Below the pieces are notes generated by a model, which worked only from the letters and a program-made list of their open reading frames with translations, did no database searches and was not told the origin of the DNA. Shown one piece after another: positions 2,353-62,962 of a stretch of DNA of 64,000 bases (positions are counted from its first letter, which is position 1; every line of letters starts with the position of its first letter). This stretch comes from an uncultured Gammaproteobacteria bacterium (GTDB lineage Bacteria; Patescibacteriota; Patescibacteriia; S139-126): contig CAZBLW010000002.1 in assembly GCA_964493305.1 (NCBI GenBank), positions 258,521 through 322,520 on the forward strand, in the 5' to 3' direction. Position numbers and translations under genes: made by a program.

Positions 2353-2433
2353 TTGTCATTCTCGTGTAAACGGGAATCTAAAAACAAAAAATTATTTATT
2401 TTTTTGGATTCCTGACTAAATCAGGAATGACAA
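2353..2433. repeat. MITE-like element (TTGTCATTCC...GGAATGACAA termini, two internal hairpins)
   Basis: ttgtcattctcgtgtaaacgggaatctaaaaacaaaaaattatttatttttttggattcctgactaaatcaggaatgacaa. Confidence 0.7.
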
Positions 2434-2460
2434 ATAAAGAAATTTAAAGTTTAGAAAGTA

Positions 2461-2952
2461 ATGTTTTTTTCCAAAAAAAATAAAAAATATATACTAATAG
2501 TTATTCTAGTTCTGATATTTTTATTATCTACATGGCTGATTATTTATTTATTTCCACCAATAAGTAAAAATTTACCACCTCTACCTACAAATCCAGTTTC
2601 CATAAAAACAAGTAATAAAATTTATGATCCAGCCAGTAAACATAGTTGCGAAGTAGTGCCATTTTCCCAATCTTTTACAAATGAACAGATTGTTTACCAG
2701 GTTAATTTATTTCCTTCAAATAAAAATTTTAGTTATCAACTAGAATTAGGAGAGCTACCGTTGGGTATAGTAGGGAATATCAACCCAATTTTAGGTAAAG
2801 GTAAAACGTCTGTAAATTTATATTTAAACAATATAACCAAGCAAACTGAAGGTTCCTTTACCATCCCCTTAGTTTATCATGAATATCAGTTGGGAAAATT
2901 CAAATGGCTGACCAACTATTGTTTGTTCAATGTGATTTTACCGGAAAATTAA
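2461..2952 (+). CDS. hypothetical protein with an N-terminal signal-anchor
   Basis: 163-aa ORF. After the basic start MFFSKKNKK there is a hydrophobic helix ILIVILVLIFLLSTWLIIYLF. It is tightly packed against the next gene. Confidence 0.5.
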   Translation: MFFSKKNKKYILIVILVLIFLLSTWLIIYLFPPISKNLPPLPTNPVSIKTSNKIYDPASKHSCEVVPFSQSFTNEQIVYQVNLFPSNKNFSYQLELGELPLGIVGNINPILGKGKTSVNLYLNNITKQTEGSFTIPLVYHEYQLGKFKWLTNYCLFNVILPEN

Positions 2953-2958
2953 TAAAAT

Positions 2959-3930
2959 ATGATATTTAGTAAAAAGAAAAAAATTACGAAAGATTACATT
3001 TATCTCCTGGTGATATTAGGGTTGGTAATTTTCAATATATTTTGCTTGAGTAGATTATCCAATCCGGAAATTTTTATAGATAAATATGGAAAGTTGTATC
3101 CTTTTATTGATTTTTCCCGCAATTTTATACCGCAAGAGTTTTATTTGTCCAATCTGCAACCTTTGAGAAATAGTTTAAACGAACTAGTCAGCCAAGAACA
3201 GTCCCAAGGCAATCAAGTAAGTATTTATTTTGAGTATTTAAATACCGGCGGCAATATTTCCATCAATCAAAATTTGCAGCTGATTCCGGCCAGTCTCAAT
3301 AAACTACCAGTGGCGATGGCGGCGTTGGATAAAGTGGAAAAGGGTGAATGGTCTCTGACTGACAGGTTGGTATTATTGCCGGAAGATGTGGATTCTAATT
3401 TTGGCACATTACACCAAGAACCACTAAATAGCAGTTTTACCATAGAATTTTTACTGAAAGAGATGTTGCAAAAATCAGACAATACTGCTCTCAATATTTT
3501 ACTGAGAAATGTGACGGTTGACGGGGTGATAAAAATTTTAGATGAAATTGGTTTGCAGGAATTATTTGACGAGCGGGGAAATATTACGGCCAAAGAATAT
3601 TCGCAATTATTTCGTTCTTTATATACGGCAAATTTATTGAACCGCGAGTATTCGCAACTTTTATTGTCCTGGCTGACCCAGACCGAGTTTAATGAGTTTA
3701 TTTCCCATAATATTCCGGCAGAAGTTCCGGTGGCGCATAAGTTTGGTTTGAACATGGATTATTTGGTTTTTGCTGATTCCGGAATTGTCTATTTACCAAA
3801 CCAGCCTTACCTACTGACAGTTTTAGTCAATCCTGAAAACAGTATCACGGCCGATAGTGCTCTTGGGGAAGCTGGAGAAATAATGAATGAAATTTCAGTC
3901 ATTATTTATAAATTTTTAAATGAACAATAA
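2959..3930 (+). CDS. membrane-anchored class A beta-lactamase-like serine hydrolase (PenP/penicillin-binding fold)
   Basis: N-terminal TM helix. Motifs in class A order and spacing: S-x-x-K (ASLNKLPVAMAA), SDN (QKSDNTALNILL, compare SDNTAANLLL in TEM), a Glu-containing omega-loop-like TEFNEF, and KFG in place of KTG (VAHKFGLN). Confidence 0.65.
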   Translation: MIFSKKKKITKDYIYLLVILGLVIFNIFCLSRLSNPEIFIDKYGKLYPFIDFSRNFIPQEFYLSNLQPLRNSLNELVSQEQSQGNQVSIYFEYLNTGGNISINQNLQLIPASLNKLPVAMAALDKVEKGEWSLTDRLVLLPEDVDSNFGTLHQEPLNSSFTIEFLLKEMLQKSDNTALNILLRNVTVDGVIKILDEIGLQELFDERGNITAKEYSQLFRSLYTANLLNREYSQLLLSWLTQTEFNEFISHNIPAEVPVAHKFGLNMDYLVFADSGIVYLPNQPYLLTVLVNPENSITADSALGEAGEIMNEISVIIYKFLNEQ

Positions 3931-6900
3931 TTTCAAAAAAATTAAATATTTTTTTGTTCCGGTATTGGTTTTTTTGATGTTGATTACCGGTATTCCTTTG
4001 GATGTGCAGTTGAATGAGCGCGGGCGCATCGTGGACACCATGTATTTAGCAATGAAAGGCCAAGTCAATTTTTCTGATTTTTATTTTGGTAATACCGCCC
4101 GCGCCGAGACCAAAACCATTATTTTGAATTTTACCCAAACGATTTTGACCGAAGGCAATACCTGGACCGTGCCGCTTGATTGGGATAATGCATCCAATAC
4201 CATAGAAGTAATTGGCGGCGGCGGCGCGGGGTGGACGGATACGGCCGGTACCAATGGCGCTGGCGGCGGTGGCGGTGGGGCATATTCCAAGTCGGTCAAT
4301 GTCACTTTAAGTGCCGGAGCGACTGTTAGTTATAATATAGGTAATGGTGGCAATGTTTATTCAGTAAATGGTGGGGATACTTATTTTTGTAACTCCACCA
4401 CCAATTGTGCTTCTATCGGTGGTAGTGCGGTAGTAGTTGGTGCTAAAGGTGGCTTGGGCGCAATCAATGCCACTGGTGCGCAAGGCGGGGCAACTTCAAC
4501 AGGAGTAGCAACCGGAACTGGCTCTGTAAAATATAAAGGAGGTAATGGTGGAACAGGTAATGGTCGCGGTGATTCTGGTGGTGGTGGAGGTGGGGCCGCA
4601 GGCCCCAATGGCAACGGTGGTAATGGCGGTGATGGTAATAGTAATACTACCTATGGTCATGGCGGCGGCGGCGGCGGAAATGGCGGCGGCGCAAATGGCG
4701 CTTCAGTGAGTGGCAATCCGCCCAGCCCAAATCAAAGTGGTGCCGGGGGAAATAATTATTTAAATACTGGTGGCGGTGCAGGTGTAACTAGTGGTGATGG
4801 TACCAATGGTACAGCTGGCGGTGGCGGTGCAGGTGGTTTTGATTCCAATGACGGAGGCAACGGCGGTGATGGTCAGGAATGGGGAGAAGTTGGCTCTGGC
4901 GGCGGCGGTGGTGGAACCGGGGATACTTCAAGCACAGTTGGTTACGGTGGTGATGCCGGTTTTTACGGCGCGGGTGGTGGTGGCGGACTTATTGGAGGAC
5001 GTGGTGCTCCAGGTATAATTATTATTACTTATGGTTATAACCAACCAACCAAAACTATTTGGACTGTTCCAAGTGATTGGAACAATGCTTCCAACACCAT
5101 AGAAGTAATTGGTGCTGGTGGGGCTGGGTATACAGCAGTTGACAGCGGTGGTGCTGCCGCTGGTGGCGGTGGCGGTTATTCCAAATCTATCAATGTATCT
5201 CTAACTGCTAATACACAAGTAGCTTATCAAATTGGCAATGGTGGTAGAAAAAATGGGCGAGGTAGTGCTATAGCTGGATTGTCAGGAGGTGATACTTATT
5301 TTTGTAATGCTACTTCAAACTGTACAACGATTGCAGGTAGTGCAGTTCGAGTAGGTGCCAAAGGTGGCACGGGTGGTACCAGTGCAACCACTGGCGGAAG
5401 AACTGGTGGTGCAGCTGCTAGTGGAGTTGCTTATGCAAATGAAGTATTAAATGGTAGTGGTAGCCAAAAGTATAGCGGTGGTACGGGAGGAGCTGGTACT
5501 GGTACTGGTGATAATGGTGGTGGCGGTGGTGGTGCAGCTGGCCCCAATGGCAATGCCGGTGCTGGTGGAAGTGGTACCAATACTGCAACTTATGGTGGTG
5601 GTGGTGGTGGTGGTGCTGGTGGCACAGCTTGTAGTGGTTCACCGTGTGCTGGTAGTGGTCCAAATACCACTACAGGTGGTGCGGGAGGTAATGGTCCGGC
5701 TGGTACTGGCGGTGGCGCTGGAGGTAATCCTGGTCAAAATGGTGGTTCTGGTACAGGTGGTGGAGCGGGAGGTGGAAATAATATTTCCGGTGGAGGCTTT
5801 GGTGGCAGTGGAAGTGAGTGGACTATTGCCGGTGCCGGTGGTGGTGGTGGTGGTGTTGGTGATAACTCAGGTGCTGAAACCACTGGTGGTAATGGTGGTT
5901 TGTTTGGTGCTGGTGGCGGTGGTGGTAAATGGGGAGGTTGGGGAGCTAACGGTTTAATAGTTATTACTTATGTGCCCGCCGTATTTAGTCAATCGGCTTA
6001 TCGATTTTTTAACAATACAAATTCTACTGTTGTGGGAGCGCCTTTTACAACTCAAAATACAACCACAACAATTCCTTATAATTCTCAGTTTCGTTTACGT
6101 ATATTGATTCATGTAGCTGATGCACCTTTGGGTACCAGTGGTCGTGATTTTAAGTTACAATTTGTTGATATGGGCACCGGTACTTGTGCTGCTCCTAGCG
6201 GCGGTAGCCCGTCAAGTTATACTGATGTCACTTCTACTACAGCCATAGCTTATTTTAATAACCCCACACCAGTAGATGGAGATGCTTTAACTAGTACCAC
6301 TACCGACCCTACTCATAGTGGACATTCGTTGGTGAATCAAACATATGAAGAAGCTAATAATTTTACCAATTCTCAATCGCAGATTGATCCTGATTCGTAT
6401 GATGGTCTTTGGGATTTTTCTTTAGATGATTATAATGCTGAAATTGGTAAGACTTATTGTTTTCGTGCAGTTGAAGCAAATAGTAAACTTTTATCTAGTT
6501 ATAATATTTATCCTGCTGTGACTTTTATTAATTTCCCTCCTACCATCACGTCTGCTACGGACGCTCCTGATCCAGTGAACGCTGGTTCCAATATTACTTT
6601 TACGGTTGATTGGTCAGATGAAAATGCTGATAATACTCGTTCGTTTATCTGTAAAACCAATTCTTTTACTTCATCAACTCTTACTTGCCCTGGGGGAGCT
6701 TGGGCATCATCAACTTCTTTTGCTACCACTGACCCGGTTGATATGGTATATACCACGCAAGTAGCTGATGGTGGTACCAACAATTACTATGCCTTTACTT
6801 GTGATAATGATAATGCTTGTTCGTCTGGTAGCCCTGGTACTTTTACCGTTAATCGCTACCCAAGTATTACTTCGGTTAATGACGCTCCTGACCCAGTGAA

Positions 6901-7903
6901 CGCTGGTTCCAATATTACTTTTACGGTTGATTGGTCAGATGCTGATGCCGGCGATTTAACCCGTTCGTTTATCTGTAAAACCAATTCCTTTACTTCCTCG
7001 ACACTTACTTGTGATGGTGGTTGGTGGTCATCAAGTACCGCATTCGCTACTACTGATCCGGTAGATGTTATTTATACTACCCAAGGAGGGGATATTGGCA
7101 CCAATAACTACTATGCTTTTACTTGTGATAATGACAATGCCTGTTCGTCTGGCAGTCCTGGTACTTTTGATGTCAATTCAGGTAATTCCGCCCCAACTAT
7201 AAATTCAGCTACTGATTATCCCGACCCAGTCAGTGTTGGCAGTGCAGTTACTTTCACAGTTAATTGGTCAGACGCTGACACTGGTGATTTAACGCGCACT
7301 TTTATTTGTAAAACCAATTCTTTTACTTCATCTACTTTGACTTGTGACGGCGGGTCTTGGGCGTCAAGTACATCTTTTAGCTCTATTAATATAACAGAAG
7401 TTTTCTATACCGCTTTACTAGGTGATTTAGGAACCAAAAACTATTTTGCATTTGTGTGTGATGATAGTAATGCTTGTTCCAATGGTAGTGCTGGTACTTT
7501 TACAGTGGTTAAGAGTGCACCAATTATAAATTCAGTTATTGATGCCCCTGATCCAGTAGTCGCTAGTAATAATATTACCTTTACAGTTAATTGGACTGAT
7601 CCGGAAGGGGACAATGCTAGGTCTTTTATTTGTAAAACCAATGTTATTACCACTTCAACCCTAACTTGTCCAGGTGGTTGGTATGCTTCCAGTACTTCCA
7701 TGGCTGCCACCAATCCAGTGCAAATATCCTATACCGCTCAAGCTGGGGATGCTGGACCTAGGAGTTATTATGCTTTTGTCTGTGATAGTGATAATAAATG
7801 TTCTACAGCTACAGTTGGTTCATTTTTGGTCAACTTAACTAGTTCAGTCAGTGGATATATTGAAGGGATATTCAATATCCTTGGTGATGTATTATTTAGA
7901 TAA
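3920..7903 (+). CDS. giant glycine-rich membrane-anchored surface protein. It has two ~370-aa Gly-rich modules (phage-tail-fibre-like glycine-rich domain) followed by four ~110-aa Cys-containing tandem repeats.
   Basis: 1327-aa ORF with an N-terminal TM. Each Gly-rich module starts WTVPxDWxNASNTIEVIGxGGAG..GGGGG(A)YSKS and ends GAPGIIIITYGY / GANGLIVITYVP. This matches the T-V-P...VIGGGGGG...RIIW architecture I recall for the phage tail-fibre glycine-rich domain. C-terminal repeats: DAPDPVNAGSNITFTVDWSD..RSFICKTNSFTSSTLTC..YYAFTCDNDNACSSGSPGTFTV, four copies. Confidence 0.75.
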   Translation: MNNNFKKIKYFFVPVLVFLMLITGIPLDVQLNERGRIVDTMYLAMKGQVNFSDFYFGNTARAETKTIILNFTQTILTEGNTWTVPLDWDNASNTIEVIGGGGAGWTDTAGTNGAGGGGGGAYSKSVNVTLSAGATVSYNIGNGGNVYSVNGGDTYFCNSTTNCASIGGSAVVVGAKGGLGAINATGAQGGATSTGVATGTGSVKYKGGNGGTGNGRGDSGGGGGGAAGPNGNGGNGGDGNSNTTYGHGGGGGGNGGGANGASVSGNPPSPNQSGAGGNNYLNTGGGAGVTSGDGTNGTAGGGGAGGFDSNDGGNGGDGQEWGEVGSGGGGGGTGDTSSTVGYGGDAGFYGAGGGGGLIGGRGAPGIIIITYGYNQPTKTIWTVPSDWNNASNTIEVIGAGGAGYTAVDSGGAAAGGGGGYSKSINVSLTANTQVAYQIGNGGRKNGRGSAIAGLSGGDTYFCNATSNCTTIAGSAVRVGAKGGTGGTSATTGGRTGGAAASGVAYANEVLNGSGSQKYSGGTGGAGTGTGDNGGGGGGAAGPNGNAGAGGSGTNTATYGGGGGGGAGGTACSGSPCAGSGPNTTTGGAGGNGPAGTGGGAGGNPGQNGGSGTGGGAGGGNNISGGGFGGSGSEWTIAGAGGGGGGVGDNSGAETTGGNGGLFGAGGGGGKWGGWGANGLIVITYVPAVFSQSAYRFFNNTNSTVVGAPFTTQNTTTTIPYNSQFRLRILIHVADAPLGTSGRDFKLQFVDMGTGTCAAPSGGSPSSYTDVTSTTAIAYFNNPTPVDGDALTSTTTDPTHSGHSLVNQTYEEANNFTNSQSQIDPDSYDGLWDFSLDDYNAEIGKTYCFRAVEANSKLLSSYNIYPAVTFINFPPTITSATDAPDPVNAGSNITFTVDWSDENADNTRSFICKTNSFTSSTLTCPGGAWASSTSFATTDPVDMVYTTQVADGGTNNYYAFTCDNDNACSSGSPGTFTVNRYPSITSVNDAPDPVNAGSNITFTVDWSDADAGDLTRSFICKTNSFTSSTLTCDGGWWSSSTAFATTDPVDVIYTTQGGDIGTNNYYAFTCDNDNACSSGSPGTFDVNSGNSAPTINSATDYPDPVSVGSAVTFTVNWSDADTGDLTRTFICKTNSFTSSTLTCDGGSWASSTSFSSINITEVFYTALLGDLGTKNYFAFVCDDSNACSNGSAGTFTVVKSAPIINSVIDAPDPVVASNNITFTVNWTDPEGDNARSFICKTNVITTSTLTCPGGWYASSTSMAATNPVQISYTAQAGDAGPRSYYAFVCDSDNKCSTATVGSFLVNLTSSVSGYIEGIFNILGDVLFR
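6538..7830 (+). repeat. four in-frame tandem repeats (~321-335 bp each) inside the 3920-7903 gene. Repeats 1 and 2 are almost identical at the nucleotide level.
   Basis: 'acgctcctgacccagtgaacgctggttccaatattacttttacggttgattggtcagatg' recurs at 6561 and 6882. Diverged copies start at ~7217 and ~7541. Confidence 0.8.
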
Positions 7904-7906
7904 TTC

Positions 7907-10900
7907 ATGAACAAAAAATTTGTACAATTTATCGCCAATAAATATTTTCTGATTTTGATTTTCATCTTTTTAGTGCTGTCTGGGGCAATTTTTGCCTGGC
8001 AAATTTTTACCAATAACTCACAAATGAGTTTGCAGGTTAGTGTGCCGGACAACTATCAAGATAAGATTGTTTACTCCTACCAAGGACAGTCTTTTGCTAT
8101 TCAACCAATTGCTGCCAGTAGCGTCAATGTGAAAAAGAAATTTTTTGCTGAGGAGTATGATTATCAAGATCCTTATAGTAAGGTTGATGTTAAGCGGTTA
8201 GTATCAGAAACCGGAGTCAAAGAAGATATTGTTTTACGCGAACCAGGACATCCTATGCAGTTTAAGTTTCAGCTTGATTTGGGTGAGTTTGATTATGTCA
8301 AAGATTTGACTGGAAATATTACTTTGACCAGCAAAACAGATAAACTCGAGGAAAAAGATTTACAACGAAAATTTTTCTTGCCCGCACCGTTTTTTATTGA
8401 TGCCGCTGGTAAGCAGAGTGATACTAGTGCAATTGATTTACGAATAGATGATAAAGGTATTATTACTTATACCTTAAATGAGTCGTGGTTAGCGCAAGCT
8501 CAGTACCCAGTTGTACTTGACCCGTCAGTGGAATTGGTAATTTTAAATGTGCACTCTTATCCGCAAACCGGTGATGAATGGGTGGTTGATTTTACCACCC
8601 AAGGCACGGCTGATTTAATCATTTCTCCAGCTGATCAAGCCACGATTGATGATGACAGGTTTGTTGGACTTTATTGTGATGGTGAGGAAAGATTGCCAGA
8701 AATATACAAAAATGACGTAATTTTTTATGCCAATTGGTCGTGTGCTGGTGTGGGTAGAGTAGTTCATTTTACTGAGTATGCTGGTAAACACACTTTAAAG
8801 TTTGAATTTGCAGGACAAGTGGCTTATGCCTACAACTCTGATTGGTGGAATCCGTCTTGGACTAAGCGCAAAAAAATATTTTTTGATACTACTACTTCAG
8901 CTACCACTTCCAATTTGATTGATTTTCCTTTGAGTGTGCAGTTGAATTCTACCAGAGTTGACTATACTGCCACACAAAATAGCGGTCAGGATATTCGGTT
9001 TGTAGATACTGACGGTACCGAACTACCTTATGAAATAGAGTCCTGGAATGAGTCGGGCACTTCTACTTTGTGGGTAAAAGTACCTCAGGTAAATCAAAAC
9101 ACTACGGCCGATTATATGTGGATGTATTATGGTAACTCAACGGCAGCTGATAATTCAACAACTACAGGAGTGTGGGATAATAATTATAAACTAGTGCAAC
9201 ATATGGATAATACCGTTACTAGTACTGACAGCTTTGTTGATTCTACCAAAAATTATAATCACGGTACTGGTTTTGGTGGAGGTTCATTGGCAGCAACTAG
9301 CAGTGGAAAGATAAATGGAGCTTTTAATTTTGACGGTACTGACGATTATGTTGAAGTATCCAATGATAGTAGTCTAAGCGGAATGAATGAACTCAGTATG
9401 TCAGCTTGGATTTATCTTGATCAACTACCTACAACCGTAGCGCATGATGTTGAAATTTTAGTGAAAAGACATAGTACTACCCCTTGGAACTCATATTATT
9501 TTTATATTGTGGGTACAGCTTGTACAAATGATAATGTTATGTATGTCTCATTGAAAAATGAATTGGAAGCAGCGGAATATCGTTGCGCCAGTTCAAGTTT
9601 AGCCGTCGGTCAGTGGTACCATGTTGCGGTTACTTGGGATGGATCAGATCTTCATTTTTATCTAAATGGCTCATATGATGATGAGGGGGCTACCAATTTT
9701 TCTGGTACTAGTGTTTTTTCTTCTGATGGTTCCTTTTATATAAATGGTGAAGATAGTGGGCCGGGTAGAATGGATGGCAAGATTGATGAAGTACGTATAT
9801 CAAGTATTGACCGGGGAGTAAATTGGATAAAATTTGAATATTGTAATCAAACTGATAGTTGTACCACTTATGGAACGGAGGAAACTGATGTGTGGTGGAA
9901 TACCAAGTGGTTGAAGCGGAAAAAGATTATGTTTGATACCACTACCTCAGCTACTACCACTAGTTTAGTAGATTTTCCCGTAGCTGTGCAGTTAAATAGT
10001 TCACGTATTGATTATGCTTATACCAAACCATATGGTGAAGATATTCGTTTTATTGACTCTGATGGCAAAACTTCACTGTCATATGAAATAGAAAAATGGG
10101 ACAAAACCGCCACCTCTACTTTTTGGGTGAAAGTACCAACCATTGATCGCAATTCCAACTCCGATCATATCTGGCTTTATTACAACAATCCTAACGCTTT
10201 GGATAACTCCACTACCACAGGAGTGTGGACCAATGGTTTTGTCGGTGTCTGGCATATGAACAACGCATACAATGCCTCAACCACTGATTCAACCAAAAAT
10301 GCTTTGCATGGCATTTCCAGAAATCTCGCAGCCACTTCTACTTATATGGTTGGTAGTGCTTTACAGTTCAACGGTTCAACTGCTGATGTAAAATTGCCAA
10401 TCAGTACACTACTCAATCCCGAATACACTTTAACCATAGAAGCTTGGGCCAGAACCAATTCATTGTCAGGTGAACAATCAATTCTTGGTCGAACTTTATC
10501 ATATGAACTTTTAGCCATGAGAACTTGGGCGCCAACTGGCAGACCATTGGCTCCAATTTATTATGCTTATGATACCTCAATGGATTTGGAATCAGCTACC
10601 GCACTAACTCCAGGACAGTTTACCTATTTGGCAGCTACTTACAATGGCACTACTACGGGAAAAGCGATTTTATATCAAGATACTATTATTAAACATACTA
10701 TCACTACCACCACCCCAGAAAGTTTATATCAAAATTCGGCTAACACTTATATTGGTGATTCGCAGTGGGATGATAATTCTGGCTTCAGTGGTGTAATTGA
10801 TGAAGTAAGAATTTCTGATACAGACAGAACTAAAAGTTGGATAAATTTTACTTATTGTAATATTAAAGAAACTTGTAATACTTACGGCAAAGAACAAACC

Positions 10901-14465: not shown

Positions 14466-14650
14466 TGTTTTACCTCTATTTTTTGTCAGTCCCGCGGACG
14501 CGGGATAGCAAAAACTGCCGACCAGCGCTTCCGTTCAGGTAAAATTGCCAACCGTTCGCGCGCCTCTCAAAATCTCTTACGCTTTAGTTGAGAGGCGTAA
14601 CCGCTCACTACTTGGCAATATTTACACTTCAGGAAGCGGAAGGTCGGAAA
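14466..14650. ncRNA. candidate structured RNA / conserved structured element, copy A
   Basis: Second copy at 44052-44250. Shared T-rich leader, GC hairpin, outer stem CCGACC...GGTCGG, conserved stem aattgccaa...ttggcaat, inner stem gcctctcaa...ttgagaggc. Confidence 0.35.
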
Positions 14651-14725
14651 GAAATTCAAAATAAAAATTATAAAATTAAAAAATTCATTAGTTATTAGTA
14701 ATTAGAAATTAGTAATTAAAATATT

Positions 14726-14814
14726 TGTCATTCCGTGCTTGACACGGAATCCAGAAACAAAAATAGATTCCTGCTCGAGTTTATCCCGCACTTGATGCGG
14801 GACAGGAATGACAA
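14726..14814. repeat. MITE-like element, full copy
   Basis: tgtcattccgtgcttgacacggaatccagaaacaaaaatagattcctgctcgagtttatcccgcacttgatgcgggacaggaatgacaa. Confidence 0.7.
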
Positions 14815-14897
14815 GGATAAAAGTTTAAAAATTCAGATTTATTTAAAAATTACAAAATTAAAAATTAAAAAATTCATTAGTTATTAGTAATTAAAAA

Positions 14898-15004
14898 ATG
14901 AAGTTTTCTTTTCCCCAACTAAATATATTAAAGTCCTTAAAACGAGTTCCAGGTAACAAGGAATATAATTGTCATTCCGAACTTGTTTCGGAATCTAAAA
15001 AATA
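14898..15004 (+). pseudogene. orphan duplicated 5' end (about 21 codons, out of frame) of the giant-protein gene family, interrupted by a half MITE
   Basis: atgaagttttcttttccccaactaaatatattaaagtccttaaaacga encodes MKFSFPQLNILKSLKR, homologous to the N-termini at 15005 (MKLKFSKLNIVKTLKR) and 20946 (MHFSFPQLNILNALKR). It is followed by ttgtcattccgaacttgtttcggaatc and a stop, then the real start at 15005. 15005 minus 14898 is not a multiple of 3. Confidence 0.5.
14970..15000. repeat. MITE half-element (first hairpin only)
   Basis: ttgtcattccgaacttgtttcggaatctaaaaaat. Confidence 0.6.
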
Positions 15005-20862: not shown

Positions 20863-20882
20863 CCTGCCTGCCGGCAGGCAGG
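20863..20882. repeat. perfect 20-bp palindrome cctgcctgccggcaggcagg in the intergenic region between two giant genes
   Basis: Read directly from the sequence. Related to the second hairpin of the MITE (gattcctgc...gcaggaatc). Confidence 0.6.
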
Positions 20883-20945
20883 AATTAAAAATTATAAAAT
20901 TAGTAATTCATTAGTTATTAGTAATTAGTCATTAGTAATTTATCC

Positions 20946-43706: not shown

Positions 43707-43846
43707 GGGGATAGATTTGAGTAAGAAATAGGAAAGAATAATTACCAATTATTAATAACTAATTACTAAGCAATGATTAAATTTAAAAATTATCTAATTA
43801 GTAATTCATTAGTTATTAGTAATTAGAAATTAGTAATTAAAATATT

Positions 43847-43913
43847 TGTCATTCCGTGCTTGACACGGAATCTAAAAAATAAAAATGGATTCCTGCTTTC
43901 GCAGGAATGACAA
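43847..43913. repeat. MITE-like element, full copy
   Basis: tgtcattccgtgcttgacacggaatctaaaaaataaaaatggattcctgctttcgcaggaatgacaa. Confidence 0.7.
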
Positions 43914-44006
43914 TGATAAAAATTTAAAAATTTAGATTTATTTACAAATTTAAAAAATTTAAAATTGATTAGTTATTAGTAATTAGTCATTAGTAATTAA
44001 AACAGT

Positions 44007-44040
44007 TGTCATTCCTGATTTAGTCAGGAATCCAGAAACA
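44007..44040. repeat. MITE half-element
   Basis: tgtcattcctgatttagtcaggaatccagaaaca. Confidence 0.6.
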
Positions 44041-44051: not shown

Positions 44052-44250
44052 TTTATCTCTACTTTTTTGTTAACCTGCCTCGTCGGCAAGGCGGGCAAAA
44101 AAGTAACAAAAAATTGCGGCCAGTGCTTTGGTTCAGGCAAAATTGCCAATTCGCTCGTGTGTCTCTCAAAATCGCTAAACGCTTGAGTTGAGAGACTAAA
44201 TTCACTCGCTCCTTGGCAATATTTGCACTTCACAAATCAAATGGCCGAAT
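44052..44250. ncRNA. candidate structured RNA / conserved structured element, copy B
   Basis: Outer stem CGGCC...GGCCG. Inner stem gtctctcaa...ttgagagac, compensatory to copy A. The same aattgccaa...ttggcaat stem. Confidence 0.35.
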
Positions 44251-44359: not shown

Positions 44360-44647
44360 TCAAGATTCACTTTCTTTTTCCACCAGCTCTTGGGAGGGGG
44401 AATATTTACGATTACGAATTTTCCACAAGTCAGAATACTGTCCCAGACCCTGTGTATAAAATTGGTTTTTACGACGGGTGCTTTTTTGCGACCATTCGAG
44501 AACTGAGGAAAAGTTTAATTTATATCTTCCTCTTACCACAATATATTTTATCTCTTGGTTTTTAATTGCCTGGCGGATGGTCTTACCGCTTACCCCAAAG
44601 AGGTGAGAAGCTTGGGTAATTGAAATACGAATAATTTTTTCTGTCAT
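44360..44647 (-). CDS. small helix-turn-helix DNA-binding protein (excisionase/MerR-like HTH)
   Basis: ITQASHLFGVSGKTIRQAIKNQEIKYIVVRGRYKL is the classic HTH_17/Xis-like arrangement. 95 aa. Confidence 0.5.
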   Translation of the reverse strand: MTEKIIRISITQASHLFGVSGKTIRQAIKNQEIKYIVVRGRYKLNFSSVLEWSQKSTRRKNQFYTQGLGQYSDLWKIRNRKYSPSQELVEKESES

Positions 44648-45030
44648 ATAAGTTATAGAATATTCTATACTTTATTGTATATTTTATACTTATTTTAGTC
44701 AAGATTTGTTACTTTTTTTTATAAAATTCGTATTTATGGTTAGGAGCGTTTAATATTTAAATCCCGTATTCTAAACATTATTTAATTTAATAATTAAATA
44801 ATTACTAATTCATTAGTAATTAATCATTAGTAATTAGTTATTATTCAGGGGCTATTTACATTTCCCAAACTATTAGCTAGTATAAGTTTATGCTAAATTT
44901 AGACTAATTTTCCCGAAAATTTATATAGTTTGTAGGGTTAATTAGTTTTTTTTATGGTTAATTTTATTTATTACTTGTAAATATTAAGCTTATTTAGTGT
45001 AATATATATTCCTTTTCTTCGTCTTATTAT

Positions 45031-46598: not shown

Positions 46599-46730
46599 AA
46601 TTATAAATTATCAATTTTAAATTATAAATAAATTATAAATTTAAAATTAAAAAATTCATTAAAAATTTACAATTTATAATTTAAAATTACTTTCCCTGGT
46701 ATTCTGAAAATAGTATTTAAAAAAATGTAT

Positions 46731-46795
46731 TGTCATTCCCGCGTAGGCGGGAATCCAGAAACAAAAATAGATTCCTGCTTTCGCAGGAATGACAA
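46731..46795. repeat. MITE-like element, full copy
   Basis: tgtcattcccgcgtaggcgggaatccagaaacaaaaatagattcctgctttcgcaggaatgacaa. Confidence 0.7.
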
Positions 46796-47177
46796 GAATA
46801 AATGTTTAAAAATTTTAAATGTTTGAAATTTGTAGATTTAAGTCTACAGCTTTCAGACTTTTAAAGTCTGTGTCCCGCGCACGCGGGATAAAGTAGATCT
46901 TTGTTAGAACTTTGAATCATTTGGCCCTTCGTGTTATTTCACGTTTGGGGACTTTGGCGGAAGTGAACAAGCAGACGATTCCAGGTCAGCCTAGAAATAG
47001 GCTAGACAGGCTGCTTGTTCTAGACGGGTAGCCAGCGGAAAAATTTGTTTAGTTCGCTTGCACACCGCTTTTTGTCAAAGGTCGGACCGGCGTTATTGGT
47101 AACCAAGACCAGCCAGTTGGTTCTTTCGTTGCAATGAGTTCTAGCAAGACCTAATTATTAAAAAACACAAACACTGT

Positions 47178-50675: not shown

Positions 50676-50719
50676 TCTTTGAGTTTAGTTAGATAGTAAA
50701 AAGTACTTCATAACGCTTT

Positions 50720-50757
50720 CCACCCCCTGTTCCTATGGCAGGGGGTGGATTGTTTTT
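50720..50757 (+). terminator. rho-independent terminator (first of two in tandem)
   Basis: ccaccccctgttcctatggcagggggtgg followed by a T-run. Confidence 0.75.
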
Positions 50758-51139: not shown

Positions 51140-51943
51140 ATGAACAACCAACCAGACAATATTCAAACTAATCAGCCGGTGAGTGAAAATAAAAACCAAA
51201 ACCGTATTTGGTATTTGCTGATAATTATCGTAGTTTTGGCAATAGTTTCTTGGTTAGTTTATAACAACACCAAAGATAAAACCCCAACAGTCAGTGAAGA
51301 GCCAACCAATGGACAAGTATTGGTGGGTGGGCAAGATTTGTCACAATATTTCAAAAACGAAGACAAAAAACTATCTCCCGATGTATTACCACCAGAGGAA
51401 ATAAAGGCCAGATTTGAAGCTGATTTGGCAGCAGCGCGTCAGTATATAATTGATGAAGAGGCTAAAGGAGATGGCAATGAGTATCAGGGGTATATGGGAG
51501 TAGCCAATTCTTTACGTGCTTTGGGTGATTATCCTGCAGCTGAGCAAGCTTATTTTGATATGATAGCTAAATATCCGGATGATGAACTTATTTATCACAA
51601 CTTGGGTGTTTTGTATGAAGATATGCATCAGTATTTGGAGGCAGCTAAGGCCTATACAACTTCAATTGCCAAAAAACCAGAAGAGCTTATTGCTTATCTG
51701 AAACTAGCAGATCTTTATGTTAAACATTCAAGTCAGTCTGCCAAAGCCAAAGAAGTTTATCTCAAAGCCTTGGAAGCAACCAACAATCATCCGGAAATGT
51801 TGAAAGCTTATGCTAGTTATTTAGAAAATGATGAAAAAAATTTGCCTGAAGCTTTACTGTATTGGCAAGAAGTGTTGAAAGTAAATCCCGATAATCAAGC
51901 GGTGAAGGAGAGAGTGGAAGAGTTGGAAAAAAAGTTGAATTAA
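51140..51943 (+). CDS. TPR-repeat protein with N-terminal TM
   Basis: TM WYLLIIIVVLAIVSWLVY. TPR-like helical repeats (ANSLRALGDYPAAEQAYFDMIAKYPDDELIYHNLGVLYEDMHQYLEAAKAY...). Confidence 0.6.
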   Translation: MNNQPDNIQTNQPVSENKNQNRIWYLLIIIVVLAIVSWLVYNNTKDKTPTVSEEPTNGQVLVGGQDLSQYFKNEDKKLSPDVLPPEEIKARFEADLAAARQYIIDEEAKGDGNEYQGYMGVANSLRALGDYPAAEQAYFDMIAKYPDDELIYHNLGVLYEDMHQYLEAAKAYTTSIAKKPEELIAYLKLADLYVKHSSQSAKAKEVYLKALEATNNHPEMLKAYASYLENDEKNLPEALLYWQEVLKVNPDNQAVKERVEELEKKLN

Positions 51944-52415
51944 TTTTAAATTATAAATTATAAATTTTAAATCAATTTTTTAATTTTTAAATCAAAATAT
52001 ATGAGAGGAGAGAGTCATATTTTTGACCTTGAAGAAAGGACAGCTAAATTTGGCGAAGATGTATTGAAATTTTTAAAAGAAATAAAAGTAACAGTTAAAA
52101 ATCAGTCAATTATTAATCAACTTATAAAGTCAGCTACTTCCATTGGCGCCAATTATATGGAGGCAACAGGTGCAGAGTCAAAAAAAGACTTTAAACACAA
52201 AATTGGTATATGCAAAAAAGAAACCAGAGAAACAAAGCATTGGCTAAGGATGATTGCAATTTTCCAACCTGATAGCAAACCCCAAATTAAAACACTCTGG
52301 CAGGAAGCACATGAACTTATTTTAATATTTTCTAAGATAATCAGAACTTGTAAAAATTAAATAATTTATAATTAAGTTTTCATTTATAATTTAAAATTTA
52401 TAATTTATAATTTAA
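51937..52415 (+). repeat. ~480-bp direct repeat, copy 1 (carries the four-helix-bundle gene plus ATAAATT-tract flanks)
   Basis: Essentially identical to 54607-55085 including the ORF and both AT-rich flanks. The two copies bracket the 52422-54614 gene. Confidence 0.85.
52001..52360 (+). CDS. four-helix-bundle protein (TIGR02436 / 23S-rRNA-intervening-sequence protein family), copy 1
   Basis: 119 aa. SIGANYMEATGAESKKDFKHKIGICKKETRETKHWLRM matches the S-I-x-AN-I-A-EG...E..YWL signature of the family. Confidence 0.8.
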   Translation: MRGESHIFDLEERTAKFGEDVLKFLKEIKVTVKNQSIINQLIKSATSIGANYMEATGAESKKDFKHKIGICKKETRETKHWLRMIAIFQPDSKPQIKTLWQEAHELILIFSKIIRTCKN

Positions 52416-52421: not shown

Positions 52422-54614
52422 ATGTCCCAAAATACCTTAAAACGAATTATTCAATCAGGACTAGCTGCAGTGCTGTTTGTACCAATATTAATTAGCGGAA
52501 AATTTTTGTTTCCTTATATCCATCTCAAAAATGCCTCATTTCGAGTGATTGTGACAGTACTTCTGGTGCTTGCGATTTGGTATTTGTGGCGACAAGGCGA
52601 GATTTATGGACGGAAAAATTATGTACTGTATGCATTTACGGGTATTTTTTTGGTAGAAATTATTGCTGGTATTTTTGGGCTAAATCCTTATAACAGTTTT
52701 TGGAGTAATTATGAGCGGATGGATGGGATTGTGCTGTTTTTCCATCTACTGCTTTATTTGTGGTTGTTGATACAATTTTTTCAAACCAAAGATGAGTGGT
52801 TATGGTTATTGCGTTCATCACTGGTAGTAGCTCTGATTTTATCGATTTATGGACTGGCCCAACGAGCAGGGGTAAGTAATGCTTGGATTTTGCCCAATGA
52901 CGCTCCTCGGATTGCTTCTACTATAGGTAACCCAGCTTATTTTGGTGGGTATTTACTGTTTCATGTATTTTTTTCGGGTATTTTACTTTATTTAGACCGT
53001 GTCAGATGGCGACAGGTGATTTATGCTTTGGGGGTAATATTTTTTACCTATATGATGTATGCCACTGGAACCCGCGGTCCTTTTTTGGGTTTTGTGGTGG
53101 GACTGGCTGTCATGGGGGCAATGTATTTTAAACATGCTGGTCAAAAACTAAAAATTGGCATAGCTATTGGTCTACTACTCATACCTTTGTCTGGAATATT
53201 TTTGTATACACAAAGAAACTCTGAGTGGTTGAAAAATTATTCTACTTTTCATCGTATTGCCAATATCAACTTGAAAGATTTGACTACCATTGATCGTATC
53301 AATACCTATGTGACTTCCTGGCATGCTTATACTGACCGGCCATTGTTTGGCTATGGACCAGAAAATTATCGTTATGGTTTCAATAAATATTACAATCCGG
53401 ATTTACATGAACAATGGTTTGACCGAGCGCACAATGTAATTTTTGATTATCTAAATTTAGGCGGACCCCTGGCATTGCTATTTTATCTGTCACTACTTGG
53501 AGCAGCAGTGTATTATCTTTGGCAGGCAAGAGGAGATGATTATTTTTTAAGTGTTTTGCTAATCAGTTTAGTATCAGCTTATTTTTTCCAAAATTTATTT
53601 GTCTTTGATTCTTTAAACACTTATTTGCCGCTTTTAGTAACTCTAGCTATGTCAGCTTGGCTTTATTTGCGCAATCAAAAGCATAGTTGGCAATTGTCTA
53701 ATAGTGCCCGAGCGTGGCAAATGCCACTAGTTGCAGCTAGTATAATTTTTGTTCTACTTAGTAATTATTTTATTGTTATCAAACCAGCGCAAGCCAATCT
53801 TATATCAATTGAAGCTTTTCGCTACACCCAAGCTGATCCCGCTAAATCTTTGGAACTTTTCGAGCAAGCAATCGATATGAATACTTATGGCAGTAGGGAA
53901 ATCATGTTACAACTTAATAATTTTGCTTCTGCAATAGTGCGTGATCAAAATCAAACTCAGGAATTACGGCAAAATGTTTTTAATACCAATCGGCGTTATG
54001 CCTTGGCGCATCTAGAAAAAGATCCTGGTGATATCCAATTTCGCATGTTGCTGGCAAATACTTATTTGAATTACTCGTCTATAGATAGTAGTTATTTACA
54101 AAAAACCGTTGATTTGTTGGAACCACATATTGCTGACTCACCGGATAGGTTGGAGTTGTATTTTACTTTGGTGCAGGCCTATCTGGGGATGAACAATTTA
54201 GACAAAGCCGGACTTTATGCCAAGACTGCTTTTTCCAAAACCCAAAGTAAGCCCTCAGTGTATCTCAATTTGATGAATTACTATGCGGCAGCCAAAGATG
54301 GTGATAATTTTATGAAAACCGCTGATGAGTATGAAACCAAATTTGATTTAGGACTGGCTGATTGGCAGCAGTTGGCTGAGTTTTATTACAACGTTGGATT
54401 GTATGATCGGGCTGAGCGTATTTTAAGAGATAAAATAATTGCGCAAGATCCTAACAATTTACAAAATTATGCAGGTCTAGTGGCGGTTCTGCGTGGACAA
54501 GGTAGATTGGATGAGGCGATTGCCTTATTGGAGCAGTTAAAACAAGCCTTTCCAGCAGCTGCCAAAGATATAGAAAGTTATCAGAAACAGCTGGAAACAG
54601 AGATGGGTAATTAA
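52422..54614 (+). CDS. O-antigen-ligase-like (Wzy_C) polytopic membrane protein with a C-terminal TPR domain
   Basis: About 12 TM helices, with ATGTRGPFLGFVVGLAVMG in the Wzy_C-like periplasmic loop region. C-terminal ~280 aa are TPR-like (LANTYLNY..., AEFYYNVGLYDRAERIL, LVAVLRGQGRLDEAIALL). Confidence 0.65.
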   Translation: MSQNTLKRIIQSGLAAVLFVPILISGKFLFPYIHLKNASFRVIVTVLLVLAIWYLWRQGEIYGRKNYVLYAFTGIFLVEIIAGIFGLNPYNSFWSNYERMDGIVLFFHLLLYLWLLIQFFQTKDEWLWLLRSSLVVALILSIYGLAQRAGVSNAWILPNDAPRIASTIGNPAYFGGYLLFHVFFSGILLYLDRVRWRQVIYALGVIFFTYMMYATGTRGPFLGFVVGLAVMGAMYFKHAGQKLKIGIAIGLLLIPLSGIFLYTQRNSEWLKNYSTFHRIANINLKDLTTIDRINTYVTSWHAYTDRPLFGYGPENYRYGFNKYYNPDLHEQWFDRAHNVIFDYLNLGGPLALLFYLSLLGAAVYYLWQARGDDYFLSVLLISLVSAYFFQNLFVFDSLNTYLPLLVTLAMSAWLYLRNQKHSWQLSNSARAWQMPLVAASIIFVLLSNYFIVIKPAQANLISIEAFRYTQADPAKSLELFEQAIDMNTYGSREIMLQLNNFASAIVRDQNQTQELRQNVFNTNRRYALAHLEKDPGDIQFRMLLANTYLNYSSIDSSYLQKTVDLLEPHIADSPDRLELYFTLVQAYLGMNNLDKAGLYAKTAFSKTQSKPSVYLNLMNYYAAAKDGDNFMKTADEYETKFDLGLADWQQLAEFYYNVGLYDRAERILRDKIIAQDPNNLQNYAGLVAVLRGQGRLDEAIALLEQLKQAFPAAAKDIESYQKQLETEMGN

Positions 54615-55085
54615 TTTTAAATTATAAATTATAAATTTTAAATCAATTTTTTAATTTTTAAATCAAAATATATGAGAGGAGAGAGTCATATTTTTGACCT
54701 TGAAGAAAGGACAGCTAAATTTGGCGAAGATGTATTGAAATTTTTAAAAGAAATAAAAGTAACAGTTAAAAATCAGTCAATTATTAATCAACTTATAAAG
54801 TCAGCTACTTCCATTGGCGCCAATTATATGGAGGCAACAGGTGCAGAGTCAAAAAAAGACTTTAAACACAAAATTGGTATATGCAAAAAAGAAACCAGAG
54901 AAACAAAGCATTGGCTAAGGATGATTGCAATTTTCCAACCTGATAGCAAACCCCAAATTAAAACACTCTGGCAGGAAGCACATGAACTTATTTTAATATT
55001 TTCTAAGATAATCAGAACTTGTAAAAATTAAATAATTTATAATTAAGTTTTCATTTATAATTTACAATTTATAATTTATAATTAA
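54607..55085 (+). repeat. ~480-bp direct repeat, copy 2
   Basis: Identical to 51937-52415. Confidence 0.85.
54672..55031 (+). CDS. four-helix-bundle protein, copy 2 (identical to 52001-52360)
   Basis: 100% identical ORF. Confidence 0.8.
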   Translation: MRGESHIFDLEERTAKFGEDVLKFLKEIKVTVKNQSIINQLIKSATSIGANYMEATGAESKKDFKHKIGICKKETRETKHWLRMIAIFQPDSKPQIKTLWQEAHELILIFSKIIRTCKN

Positions 55086-55258: not shown

Positions 55259-55347
55259 TTGTCATTCCGCACTTGATGCGGAATCTAAAAACAAAAACAA
55301 AAATATTATTTATTTTTTTGGATTTCTGACTAAATCAGGAATGACAA
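55259..55347. repeat. MITE-like element, full copy (second half near-identical to the 2353-2433 copy)
   Basis: tgtcattccgcacttgatgcggaatctaaaaacaaaaacaaaaatattatttatttttttggatttctgactaaatcaggaatgacaa. Confidence 0.7.
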
Positions 55348-58166: not shown

Positions 58167-58198
58167 AAGTTTGTAAAATAATAAAGTTTATAAAGTAT

Positions 58199-58282
58199 TG
58201 TCATCCCTGACTTAATCAGGGATCCAGAAAAAAAATAAGATGGACTCTTGATATTTCGCTGACGCAAAATTCAGGAATGACA
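58199..58282. repeat. MITE-like element, degenerate second half
   Basis: tgtcatccctgacttaatcagggatccagaaaaaaaataagatggactcttgatatttcgctgacgcaaaattcaggaatgaca. Confidence 0.6.
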
Positions 58283-58301
58283 CTTAGAATAAAATAAAAA
58301 A

Positions 58302-58589
58302 ATGAAAGAGTATTTTGTATATATTATGGCCAGTAATAAAAATGGCACATTGTATATAGGTGTAACTTCAGATTTGAAGAAAAGGATATATGAACATAAA
58401 AATGATTTAGTACCAGGTTTTACCAATAGATATAAAGTACACAATTTGGTTTATTTTGAAGTAATCAATGACATCAGAGAAGCATTACTTAGAGAAAAAA
58501 GATTAAAAAAATGGAAAAGAGAATGGAAGATTAAGTTAATTGAAAAAAATAACCCAAGTTGGAAAGATTTATATGAAGGTTTATTTTAG
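58302..58589 (+). CDS. GIY-YIG nuclease-superfamily small protein (UPF0213/YhbQ-like)
   Basis: YFVYIMASNKNGTLYIGVTSDLKKRIYEHKN (G-T-L-Y-I-G ... R...H). 95 aa. Confidence 0.8.
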   Translation: MKEYFVYIMASNKNGTLYIGVTSDLKKRIYEHKNDLVPGFTNRYKVHNLVYFEVINDIREALLREKRLKKWKREWKIKLIEKNNPSWKDLYEGLF

Positions 58590-58596
58590 ATTTTTT

Positions 58597-58745
58597 GGAT
58601 TCCTGCCTACGCAGGAATGACAAGGAAAGAACTTATTGTCATTCCGTGCTTGACACGGAATCTAAAAAAATAAAAATGGATTCCTGCCTACGCAGGAATG
58701 ACATGGGAGAATGGATTTCTGCTGAAGTTTATCCCGCACTTGATG
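58597..58745. repeat. cluster of MITE pieces: a second-half fragment (58597-58623), a full copy (58637-58703) and a truncated fragment (58704-58745)
   Basis: ggattcctgcctacgcaggaatgaca ... ttgtcattccgtgcttgacacggaatctaaaaaaataaaaatggattcctgcctacgcaggaatgaca ... ggatttctgctgaagtttatcccgcacttgatg. Confidence 0.65.
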
Positions 58746-58890: not shown

Positions 58891-58896
58891 ATTAGC

Positions 58897-61282: not shown

Positions 61283-62122
61283 TTATAAAACATCCCATTC
61301 TTGCGGTAGTAGATGCTGGTAGTGCCCCTGGTATTTATTGTTCCATTTTTTGGGAGCAATGACAATTTTATTTGTATTTTGGTTTAAGTAAGCTGCCCAC
61401 CAGGAAAAAGTACTATTTGATATAATTTGGTGCTGGCATTGGCTCATCAATATCAACTCTTGTGTAGCTTCACTATTTTTTTCCGGTGAAACATATATAT
61501 TCTGTCCGTTGGTTTTTAAATTTGTTTTAACCCAAGCAATGTCATCTGAAAAAATGAAGAATATAGGATTTGTTATTTTTGTATTTATTAACTCCAGTGC
61601 TTTTTTAAAATAATCAATATTTATGGTTTGGTGAATCGATTTTATTTTTTGATTGTCAGCAAAGTCACCCCGTCTGATGTGGATAGCAACTGAATTTGAA
61701 TTTTTTATTTGACTGCTAATTTGTTGATAATAATCAGTAAACGGATTTTTCAAAGTGATTTCTTGTAGTAATTTATCTTTGATAGGATCAAGATATAGAT
61801 AGCTTTGCCAGTAGCCTTCAAAATAGTTTTTTTGCGAAGTTAACAAATGCGGTTGCCAACCAATATTAAATTCACGAAATATTTTTTGTTTGAAAAATCT
61901 GGCAAAAGCCGAGGGTGCGTACTTTTGTATTTCCTCTGTACTAGCAATTCCTGTTTTAATATTAAATTTATCCAAAACATACTTTCGTTTGGTATCTTTG
62001 GCACTTCCCATAGAAGATATATCCAATTTGAGTTGCTCGTTTCTTTTATTTGCTAAAAACCTTCCAAAGCCGTATTGGAAGAGTTGATTACCTAAACCTC
62101 CTTTTAATTTTACAATTAACAT
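61283..62122 (-). CDS. alpha-1,2-fucosyltransferase (GT11 family)
   Basis: The N-terminal LKGGLGNQLFQYGFG matches the GT11 signature (GGLGNQMFQYA). HxRRGD-like IHIRRGDF motif present. 279 aa. Confidence 0.75.
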   Translation of the reverse strand: MLIVKLKGGLGNQLFQYGFGRFLANKRNEQLKLDISSMGSAKDTKRKYVLDKFNIKTGIASTEEIQKYAPSAFARFFKQKIFREFNIGWQPHLLTSQKNYFEGYWQSYLYLDPIKDKLLQEITLKNPFTDYYQQISSQIKNSNSVAIHIRRGDFADNQKIKSIHQTINIDYFKKALELINTKITNPIFFIFSDDIAWVKTNLKTNGQNIYVSPEKNSEATQELILMSQCQHQIISNSTFSWWAAYLNQNTNKIVIAPKKWNNKYQGHYQHLLPQEWDVL

Positions 62123-62155
62123 ATTTGGTTAGCTTATAGCTGTCAGCTTTTAATT

Positions 62156-62881
62156 TTATTTAATAAACCAAAAACACCCGCAATCATAATTTCCTAATCT
62201 CAAATTATTAACATCAGGATTTTTTAGCATTGGACCATGGTATTCGGGGATAAGGCTAAATTCATGCAAACTTAAATCAGAAAATAGATTTTTTATCATT
62301 TCATAAGTATAAATCCGGTGGGCATTGAACATAATTTTTGCCTTTTTGCCAATAGGAACAACAAAGAGTAAATTTCCCCCAGGTGCTAAAACCCTGACCA
62401 ACTCTTTGATCGCTTTAATATCACCTTCAGGATCAAGTTGATCACCATAACGCCTTAAGCCAATATGTTCCACTGTGTGCATACAAGAAAGGGAGGAGAC
62501 ACTATTATCAGGCCAAGGAAGTTTCGTAATATCAATAGATTTAGTATTGAGATTTGAAAGTTGTAAATCAGCCGGTCTATAGTCATAGAAATCAACTGGC
62601 ACAAAAGCTGAAACAATTCCAGAAAAGTATAAGCTAGAAGCAATATCAATATGTTTTACCGGATTGATTTCTTTGACACATCTTGCTGCCCAAGCGGTGT
62701 GATAAATATAATGTCTATCAAAACCAGTAAGTATAGTTTTATCAAACGGTTGGGGATAGAAGTCTTTTAGTTGTGTAGAAAACCTTTTTTCCTTGTCTAT
62801 ATTTTTGAAATTTTTAAAATCCTGCCAAATCAAAGGAGTCAGCAACGTGTTTCTAATTAGTTTGTAGAGTTTTTTTAACAT
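62156..62881 (-). CDS. putative SAM-dependent methyltransferase-like protein (DUF268-like), in the glycan operon
   Basis: 241 aa. Rossmann-like stretch VRVLAPGGNLLFVVPIG. Assignment to DUF268 is from memory and tentative. Confidence 0.35.
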   Translation of the reverse strand: MLKKLYKLIRNTLLTPLIWQDFKNFKNIDKEKRFSTQLKDFYPQPFDKTILTGFDRHYIYHTAWAARCVKEINPVKHIDIASSLYFSGIVSAFVPVDFYDYRPADLQLSNLNTKSIDITKLPWPDNSVSSLSCMHTVEHIGLRRYGDQLDPEGDIKAIKELVRVLAPGGNLLFVVPIGKKAKIMFNAHRIYTYEMIKNLFSDLSLHEFSLIPEYHGPMLKNPDVNNLRLGNYDCGCFWFIK

Positions 62882-62889
62882 TTTTTTCT

Positions 62890-62962
62890 TGTCATTCTCG
62901 CGTAAGCGGGAATCCAGAAAGAATTTTTTATTTCTAGATTCCGTATCAAGTACGGAATGACA
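62890..62962. repeat. MITE-like element inside the minus-strand glycan operon (between two co-directional genes)
   Basis: tgtcattctcgcgtaagcgggaatccagaaagaattttttatttctagattccgtatcaagtacggaatgaca. Confidence 0.65.

Follow-up and report, generated by a model that had tools for sequence, protein, structure and literature searches.

Convergent hairpin repeats around a small GIY-YIG nuclease gene in an uncultured bacterium very probably belong to the NTS/SRM family

The dRS3/NIME repeats of Neisseria have been redefined as NTS (CGTCATTCCCGCGMAVGCGGGAATCYRG), with SRM denoting the degenerate form (Chenal et al., Nat Commun 2025; PMC11893778). SsnA, a single-domain GIY-YIG protein of 94 aa, binds the NTS solely as single-stranded DNA (ssDNA) and in only one of its two strands, cleaving a few nucleotides upstream of it; neither RNA nor duplex DNA is a substrate (PMC11893778). 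Critical for the NTS are the triplet that precedes the palindrome and the C immediately 3' of it, ssn genes are typically flanked by SRMs, and 2% of NTS lie inside genes (PMC11893778). Here we analyse a 64,000-nucleotide stretch of an uncultured bacterium (assembly GCA_964493305.1, contig CAZBLW010000002.1, positions 258,521 to 322,520; hereafter the window), in which an initial annotation had described a family of MITE-like palindromic elements without recognising it as dRS3/NIME/NTS. We find that these repeats, together with a 95-aa GIY-YIG gene lying among them (ssn, 58302-58589, + strand), are very probably NTS/SRM repeats with their cognate Ssn nuclease, predicted to form ssDNA hairpins and to be cut as such. 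This reading draws on the match in sequence and architecture, the homology and catalytic residues of the enzyme, the way its gene is linked to the repeats, the covariation of their stems, their position between genes and the turnover of copies. The repeat family and the Ssn system are already known since 2025, and the window holds a further member; new here are the host lineage, the turnover of sites, a compensatory change in an orthologous copy, a unit at a duplication breakpoint and the low synonymous divergence (dS) of ssn.

The repeats are built from a single unit, (T)TGTCATTCC-stem/loop-GGAATC-YAGAAA, present in 16 well-formed and several decayed copies in the window. Units were called by a relaxed pattern scan with a pairing filter of at least 8 consecutive base pairs, since the strict published SRM string recovers only two of them. 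The family is real and has the terminal inverted repeats first ascribed to it: TTGTCATTCC occurs 21 times with at most one mismatch, compared with 5.7 expected (21 was reached in 0/100 shuffles), four perfect TTGTCATTCC-N40-70-GGAATGACAA elements stand against 0 expected, and there are 13 exact ATTCC-N-GGAAT hairpins. Every position at which an element had been listed does hold one. All 16 units carry TGTC on the 5' side and a C immediately 3' of the palindrome. The stem, of at least 8 bp, starts with ATTCC except in three units (ATTCT twice, ATCCC once) and is closed by a loop of 4-5 nt, after which GGAAT-C follows. The 3' flank reads YAGAAA or YAAAAA in 13/16 units, the remaining three having CATTTT (twice) and TATTTT. 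What had been taken for a second kind of hairpin is the same unit on the opposite strand. The prevailing arrangement is a convergent pair of 66-90 bp: the 13 loci comprise eight convergent pairs, three solitary units, one truncated long-loop unit and a match at 14483 that we later judged to be probably not a unit.

Although coding sequence makes up 89% of the window, all 13 loci fall between genes, which bears out the placement of copies at gene boundaries proposed initially. Intergenic hairpins could also be intrinsic transcription terminators, and a terminator-like call was indeed obtained for three right-hand units, in which a T-rich tail comes after the hairpin. However, these three calls lie on the - strand while the flanking genes lie on the + strand, and on the coding strand it is A-runs that follow the hairpins. 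Neither the solitary units nor those that precede start codons fit this function, and clear terminators of other sequence exist in the window (e.g., 50719-50749 and 43703-43678). With the T-tails on the wrong strand, we reject the terminator reading as very improbable.

The positions critical in Neisseria, the upstream GTC and the C after the palindrome, are kept in 16/16 units. The published search string HGTCWYN(0-2)YYVSBRHN(0-5)WNVSBRGN(0-2)RNCYNB is fitted by 2/16 units (46731 and 62890), where 0.14 would be expected in shuffled sequence; the others deviate from it in the inner stem or in loop length, which is 5 nt in most units. The pair at 46730..46795 contains a left unit (TGTCATTCCCGCGTAGGCGGGAATCCAG) that differs from the NTS consensus at two positions, and the only match in the window to the exact 20-bp dRS3 palindrome ATTCCC-N8-GGGAAT (46735-46754); the other units are of the type ATTCC-N10/11-GGAAT. 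Window and published system (PMC11893778) share an oriented hairpin with the signature (C/T)GTCATTCC...GGAATC-YRG, a single-domain GIY-YIG gene of 94-95 aa between repeats, intergenic clusters near surface-protein genes and an occurrence in many phyla. They differ in the varied inner stems of the window, in its second loop class (YTTRA) and in the host, a low-GC uncultured lineage. As in the Neisseria dRS3/NIME elements, inverted pairs of one palindrome surround a short spacer, but the window spacers are about 13-35 nt long and A-rich, whereas those of Neisseria measure roughly 58 bp.

In the 95-aa ssn product, Pfam PF01541 spans residues 4-77 (E 1.4e-17) and is the sole domain meaningfully above cut-off. 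Compared with the SsnA orthologue of N. gonorrhoeae (94 aa, L129:1489-1773, taken from a chromosome filed as a plasmid in PLSDB), it is 58% identical over 86 aa (pairwise E 4e-38), and its residues Y7, Y18 and E65 align to the catalytic Y6, Y17 and E64 of SsnA. We note that binding and cutting of ssDNA only was established on four other Ssn proteins (PMC11893778). Homologues number 7057 and remain about 70% identical even across phyla. A PDB sequence search with the protein returned no Ssn structure and only weak matches to UPF0213 (1zg2, E 0.02; 1ywl, E 0.14) and UvrC; in the CDD, Ssn nucleases are labelled cd10448 (GIY-YIG_unchar_3) and UPF0213 cd10456.

The gene is bracketed by units. Immediately upstream of it, the locus 58198..58283 combines a left unit with the variant ATCCC/GGGAT stem (58199-58224, +) and a decayed right unit, and right after the stop codon a further unit (locus 58593..58623, unit 58598-58622, -) closes the unit-ssn-unit layout. 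The same layout, including the unit after the stop codon, is conserved in the syntenic 20-kb stretch of a related genome, GCA_964620905.1 (L124). In loci from other phyla, 5/5 full-length ssn genes also lie between convergent units. Of the 11 NTS at the ssnA locus of N. gonorrhoeae, ten form convergent pairs whose starts are 78-83 bp apart, and the "MITE-like" elements of the window have the same paired layout.

A cognate enzyme gene flanked by units within the window therefore contradicts the initial conclusion that the family lacks a transposase and is non-autonomous. The associated idea of REP/BIME- or MITE-type elements, whose movement would depend in trans on a Y1 (RAYT, IS200/IS605) or DDE transposase from another part of the genome, is appealing in that hairpin repeats clustered in intergenic regions resemble REP/BIME and in that the search covered only 64 kb of the genome. 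The Ssn system likewise shares with REP/BIME-RAYT and IS200/IS605 an ssDNA-hairpin nuclease, a gene bracketed by its repeats and massive intergenic amplification. In contrast to these systems, the enzyme fold is GIY-YIG and not HUH/Y1, the paired hairpins lie on opposite strands and not on the same strand, and the Ssn system is not known to transpose. A Pfam scan of the 36 largest, mostly non-overlapping ORFs (open reading frames) of the window, which left aside short nested ORFs, detected no Y1_Tnp, no TnpB and no transposase domain of another kind, and target-site duplications of at least 4 nt were no commoner than chance in 51 pairs. The sequence is moreover that of the Neisseria NTS and not of REP; the shown partner of the NTS is Ssn, and units flank ssn here and in other phyla. 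We therefore consider movement in trans by such transposases extremely improbable. A classical MITE was rejected likewise: the terminal inverted repeats are present, but neither a target-site duplication nor, in the ORFs scanned, a transposase domain accompanies them.

Outside the window, we scanned one genome per species with only the outer parts fixed (TTGTCATTCC-N9-13-GGAATCYARAAA) and the interior left free. The same paired architecture was recovered at a minimum of 120 loci from many phyla, those listed including Desulfobacterota, Bacteroidota, Planctomycetota, Omnitrophota, Nitrospirota, Patescibacteria and Rickettsiaceae among many others, and the unit consensus over these loci, GTCATTCCCGCGAAAGCGGGAATCCAG, contains the Neisseria dRS3 palindrome. 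Although unconstrained by the scan, the interior still pairs: 113/123 external units have at least three additional inner pairs (mean 2.81, compared with 0.54 for shuffled interiors), drawn from 16 different complementary triplets. Among 40 distinct units, the three inner pairs yield 28 double-change cells compared with 6.7 in shuffles (0/500), a signal that is lost when partner columns are slid. The structure is therefore conserved around a variable inner stem, as the initial annotation had proposed from interiors that vary yet stay complementary. In agreement, between the orthologous copies of the pair at 55259 in the window and in L124, one left-stem base pair has undergone a compensatory replacement of C:G by T:A. 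Folded as ssDNA, the pairs are more stable than shuffled sequence, with z = -5.0 to -6.9 in 8/9 folds and z = -2.6 for the half-decayed pair at 58198; the predicted folds are either two hairpins or one long hairpin.

Such constraint was initially taken to indicate either a structured RNA or a protein-recognised DNA hairpin, as opposed to random decay. The second option fits better. If the pairs were genes or parts of small structured RNAs, the covariation would reflect selection on RNA folding, and two experimentally detected small RNAs (sRNAs) do resemble them: the Rfam consensus of FtrB (RF02748, Francisella) and of WsnRNA46 (RF02625, Wolbachia) contains the same unit pairs, and window pairs align to them end to end. 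In fact, transcription of such pairs is possible, as GTCATTCCCGCGTAGGCGGGAATC forms part of the published Northern probe for FtrB (PMC3091763). However, the matches score 38.0 bits against a gathering cut-off of 66 for FtrB (the pair at 43846..43913) and 34.1 bits against 65.3 for WsnRNA46, far too low for the window pairs to be members of either family, and at gathering thresholds the only Rfam match in the window is a tRNA-Pro. DNA hairpins would be expected to give the same covariation, it is at the conserved flanks (GTC and C) that the protein of the DNA system makes contact, and copies decay or vanish in relatives. Because characterised SsnA binds the hairpin only as ssDNA and not as RNA (PMC11893778), and because mutants without ftrB showed no phenotype when assayed for stress sensitivity, multiplication in macrophages and virulence in mice (PMC3091763), an RNA function is not the best account of the constraint, and we regard it as improbable. 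Unlike the FtrB and WsnRNA46 entries, which are RNAs, the window pairs are best explained by constraint at the DNA level; conversely, these two sRNA families appear to be transcripts of SRM pairs.

Comparison of the window with L124 and four further syntenic loci (L125-L128) reveals that copies at matching positions are conserved, decayed or absent. The pair at 55259..55347, which has a longer A/T spacer, is orthologous in L124 at roughly 75% DNA identity, an extra unit adjoining it there. The site of the 46730 pair holds a decayed copy in L125 and none in L128, and nothing is found in L127 at the sites of the pair at 43846..43913 and of the solitary unit at 44006..44032 (+). The pair at 62889..62963, between two - strand genes, has no counterpart in L124, in which another gene is the neighbour. 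Beside ssn, the pair at 58636..58704 lies within an 81-bp unit-bearing segment, in which the preceding right unit is repeated and which L124 does not have.

The ssn gene itself differs from its L124 counterpart by a nonsynonymous divergence (dN) of 0.031 and a dS of 0.20, while eight syntenic neighbours have dS values of 1.01-1.52. The gene is under purifying selection, and the low dS suggests either exchange or conversion more recent than the divergence of the genomes, or constraint at the DNA level.

A duplication links the repeats to the giant-protein locus. The segment 14836-14968 (+) is a copy of 20876-21010, comprising an AT-rich upstream motif and the ~24 first codons of the 1667-aa giant gene at 20946, and it stops exactly at the solitary unit 14969..14995 (+). 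This unit, which had been placed inside the 5' end of a giant gene, instead lies between a 35-codon ORF that is the 5' remnant and the ATG at 15005 of a 1933-aa gene, 9 nt upstream of that start codon. A unit positioned exactly at a gene-duplication breakpoint means that the repeats mark a past rearrangement at this locus. The initial suggestion that the element is "actively" remodelling the giant-protein locus overstates this, as the breakpoint speaks for a former event and not for an ongoing one.

Several observations weigh against assigning the repeats to NTS/SRM with a cognate Ssn. The published SRM string is failed by 14/16 units, most of which are ATTCC-N10/11-GGAAT instead of ATTCCC-N8-GGGAAT and have different inner stems. 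In Neisseria, SsnA activity was lost when the palindrome was altered in a way that preserved the hairpin (PMC11893778), and for this reason it is an assumption that one enzyme accepts the eight or more inner stems found here. A single ssn gene was seen in 64 kb. Finally, the low dS comes from one gene pair of 95 codons, and selection on the DNA sequence could contribute to it.

The same data also bear on whether unit-ssn-unit is an active selfish mobile element, IS-like or homing-like, with gene-less pairs as non-autonomous derivatives and an Ssn nick that starts copying or insertion beside units. This explanation overlaps with the NTS/SRM–Ssn reading and differs from it in making present-day mobility the chief reason for the repeats. 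The inverted-repeat ends are near-identical in many phyla, and the ~70% identity of Ssn proteins across phyla, the dS of 0.20 for ssn compared with at least 1.0 for its neighbours and the presence or absence of copies between relatives all speak in its favour, as do two unit-level insertions or deletions that directly adjoin an existing unit; an analogy to insertion sequences was also raised by the authors of PMC11893778. On the other hand, the 51 pairs yielded no target-site duplication and no precise empty site was recovered. Both relatives have ssn at one and the same syntenic site, one pair must be of some age, its copies being orthologous at roughly 75% DNA identity, and one nick per strand cannot alone excise an element. 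No relatives of ssn were found in viral contigs or phage records, and plasmid matches are mostly very large replicons, together with two Neisseria chromosomes mislabelled as plasmids; no Ssn is known to transpose. Present-day mobility as the chief cause is therefore possible, and we hold it to be rather doubtful. In its most explicit form, which we put forward as a tentative and equally doubtful proposal, unit-ssn-unit would be a mobile element of undemonstrated kind, in which a 95-aa GIY-YIG single-strand nickase, leaving no target-site duplication, seeds copies beside units and crosses bacterial phyla; gene-less pairs would be its non-autonomous progeny, and the dS deficit of ssn (at least 5-fold against its eight syntenic neighbours) would reflect recent re-invasion or conversion at a fixed site.

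Under the favoured NTS/SRM–Ssn reading, each unit would act as an oriented hairpin, in which TGTC precedes an 8-bp stem (ATTCC and three variable pairs) closed by a 4-5 nt loop, and C-YAG-AAA follows it. The hairpin would form when the DNA is single-stranded, as during replication or repair or in incoming transforming DNA, and Ssn would bind it and introduce a nick into the same strand, a few bases to the 5' side of the unit. Elements of 66-90 bp would be two facing units, that is, the ssn-flanking layout minus the gene, which is also the NTS layout in Neisseria. Cutting at the repeats may shape recombination around the genes they flank in this organism, such as surface and glycosylation loci, and repeats and ssn have probably also spread via an Ssn-linked process.

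The assignment places conspicuous repeats of an uncultured, probably episymbiotic lineage in a system with a known biochemical basis, and provides an experimental handle in the form of a single small protein with its defined hairpin substrates. For studies of Ssn specificity, the diversity of inner stems supplies natural substrate variants, relevant to developers of ssDNA-cutting tools. The results also bear on whether Ssn/NTS is a domesticated recombination control or a selfish element, through the paired layout that extends from Neisseria to candidate phyla, the two "sRNAs", the unit at a duplication breakpoint and the low dS of ssn. Regarding the host, a 2-oxoacid oxidoreductase subunit encoded in the window has its best named relatives in Patescibacteria (~50% identity), with some DPANN archaea among the matches, and the giant Laminin_G_3/DUF2341 proteins are consistent with Patescibacteria without proving it; the host is probably, though not firmly, assigned to this group.

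The remaining units complete the set. A convergent SRM pair at 2353..2433 (left unit 2354-2378, +; right unit 2407-2432, -) lies between two + strand genes and has a DNA fold z of -5.2, and the 43846 pair (units 43847-43872, +, and 43888-43912, -) has fold z values of -5.6 and -6.1. In the pair at 14725..14814, the left unit (14726-14751) is accompanied by a right unit with an expanded loop that encloses a nested hairpin (GAGTTTATCCCGCACTTGATGCGGGA), and the truncated right unit at 58713..58745 is also of the long-loop type. This form, with the nested hairpin (..GAGTTTATCC(C)GC...GCGGG..) in the loop, is found in the window at 14774-14814 and 58713-58745. A long-loop right unit is also present in L052 and in L124 (about 10326-10378). 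The form recurs in distant phyla and is therefore a conserved variant and no local accident.

Two further structured stretches were encountered. An element of ~170 nt occurs in two copies (14478-14650 and 44053-44250; 81% identical), both near SRM units, and the 14483 match (TTGTCAGTCC...) resembles a variable hairpin in the 5' part of this other element. Its consensus fold has 44 pairs, ten of them kept through changes on both sides, and it has no Rfam match at E <= 1. Copies elsewhere are confined to close relatives (L128 2480-2662, L132, L138 and L144), including two on one 33-kb contig, and of 23 metagenome matches to its pattern 20 are unrelated and due to chance. The element possibly represents an unknown small RNA present in multiple copies. 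The second stretch, 46838-47177 (core about 46880-47150), precedes the 1165-aa gene at 47178 and comprises ~300 nt of non-coding sequence that is near-identical in three genomes, while the flanking proteins are only ~70% identical among them. It carries two variable-length hairpin insertions, has a predicted fold of 94 pairs and no Rfam match, and looks like an unrecognised structured RNA or leader.

A 119-aa "23S rRNA intervening sequence protein" gene is present twice (52001-52360 and 54672-55031); the copies, with overlapping segments at 51938-52237 and 54609-54908, are 100% identical over at least 300 nt and bracket the Wzy_C gene. L124 has neither copy at these sites, has an SRM unit at the second and carries such a gene elsewhere; the gene seems to move or duplicate. 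Immediately after the giant genes lies a small nuclease-family gene (GxxExxY / PD-(D/E)XK_3, 25991-26401) with no flanking SRM units. An excisionase-family helix-turn-helix gene (44360-44647, -) is conserved in position in L126, L127 and L128, with no integrase seen nearby, and a 1327-aa ORF without a Pfam match (3920-7903) contains glycine-rich GGT/GGC repeats at about 4200-5950, with a GC content of 52% and a GC skew of +0.34. Finally, the AT-rich motif (TTCATTAGTTATTAGTAATTAG...) recurs at 14682-14722, 14866-14895, 20900-20941, 28715-28757, 43803-43843, 43963-44003 and 44800-44850, upstream of several genes including giant ones, and TAAATTA-type periodic repeats are found in most intergenic regions; both may serve as promoters or leaders in this lineage.

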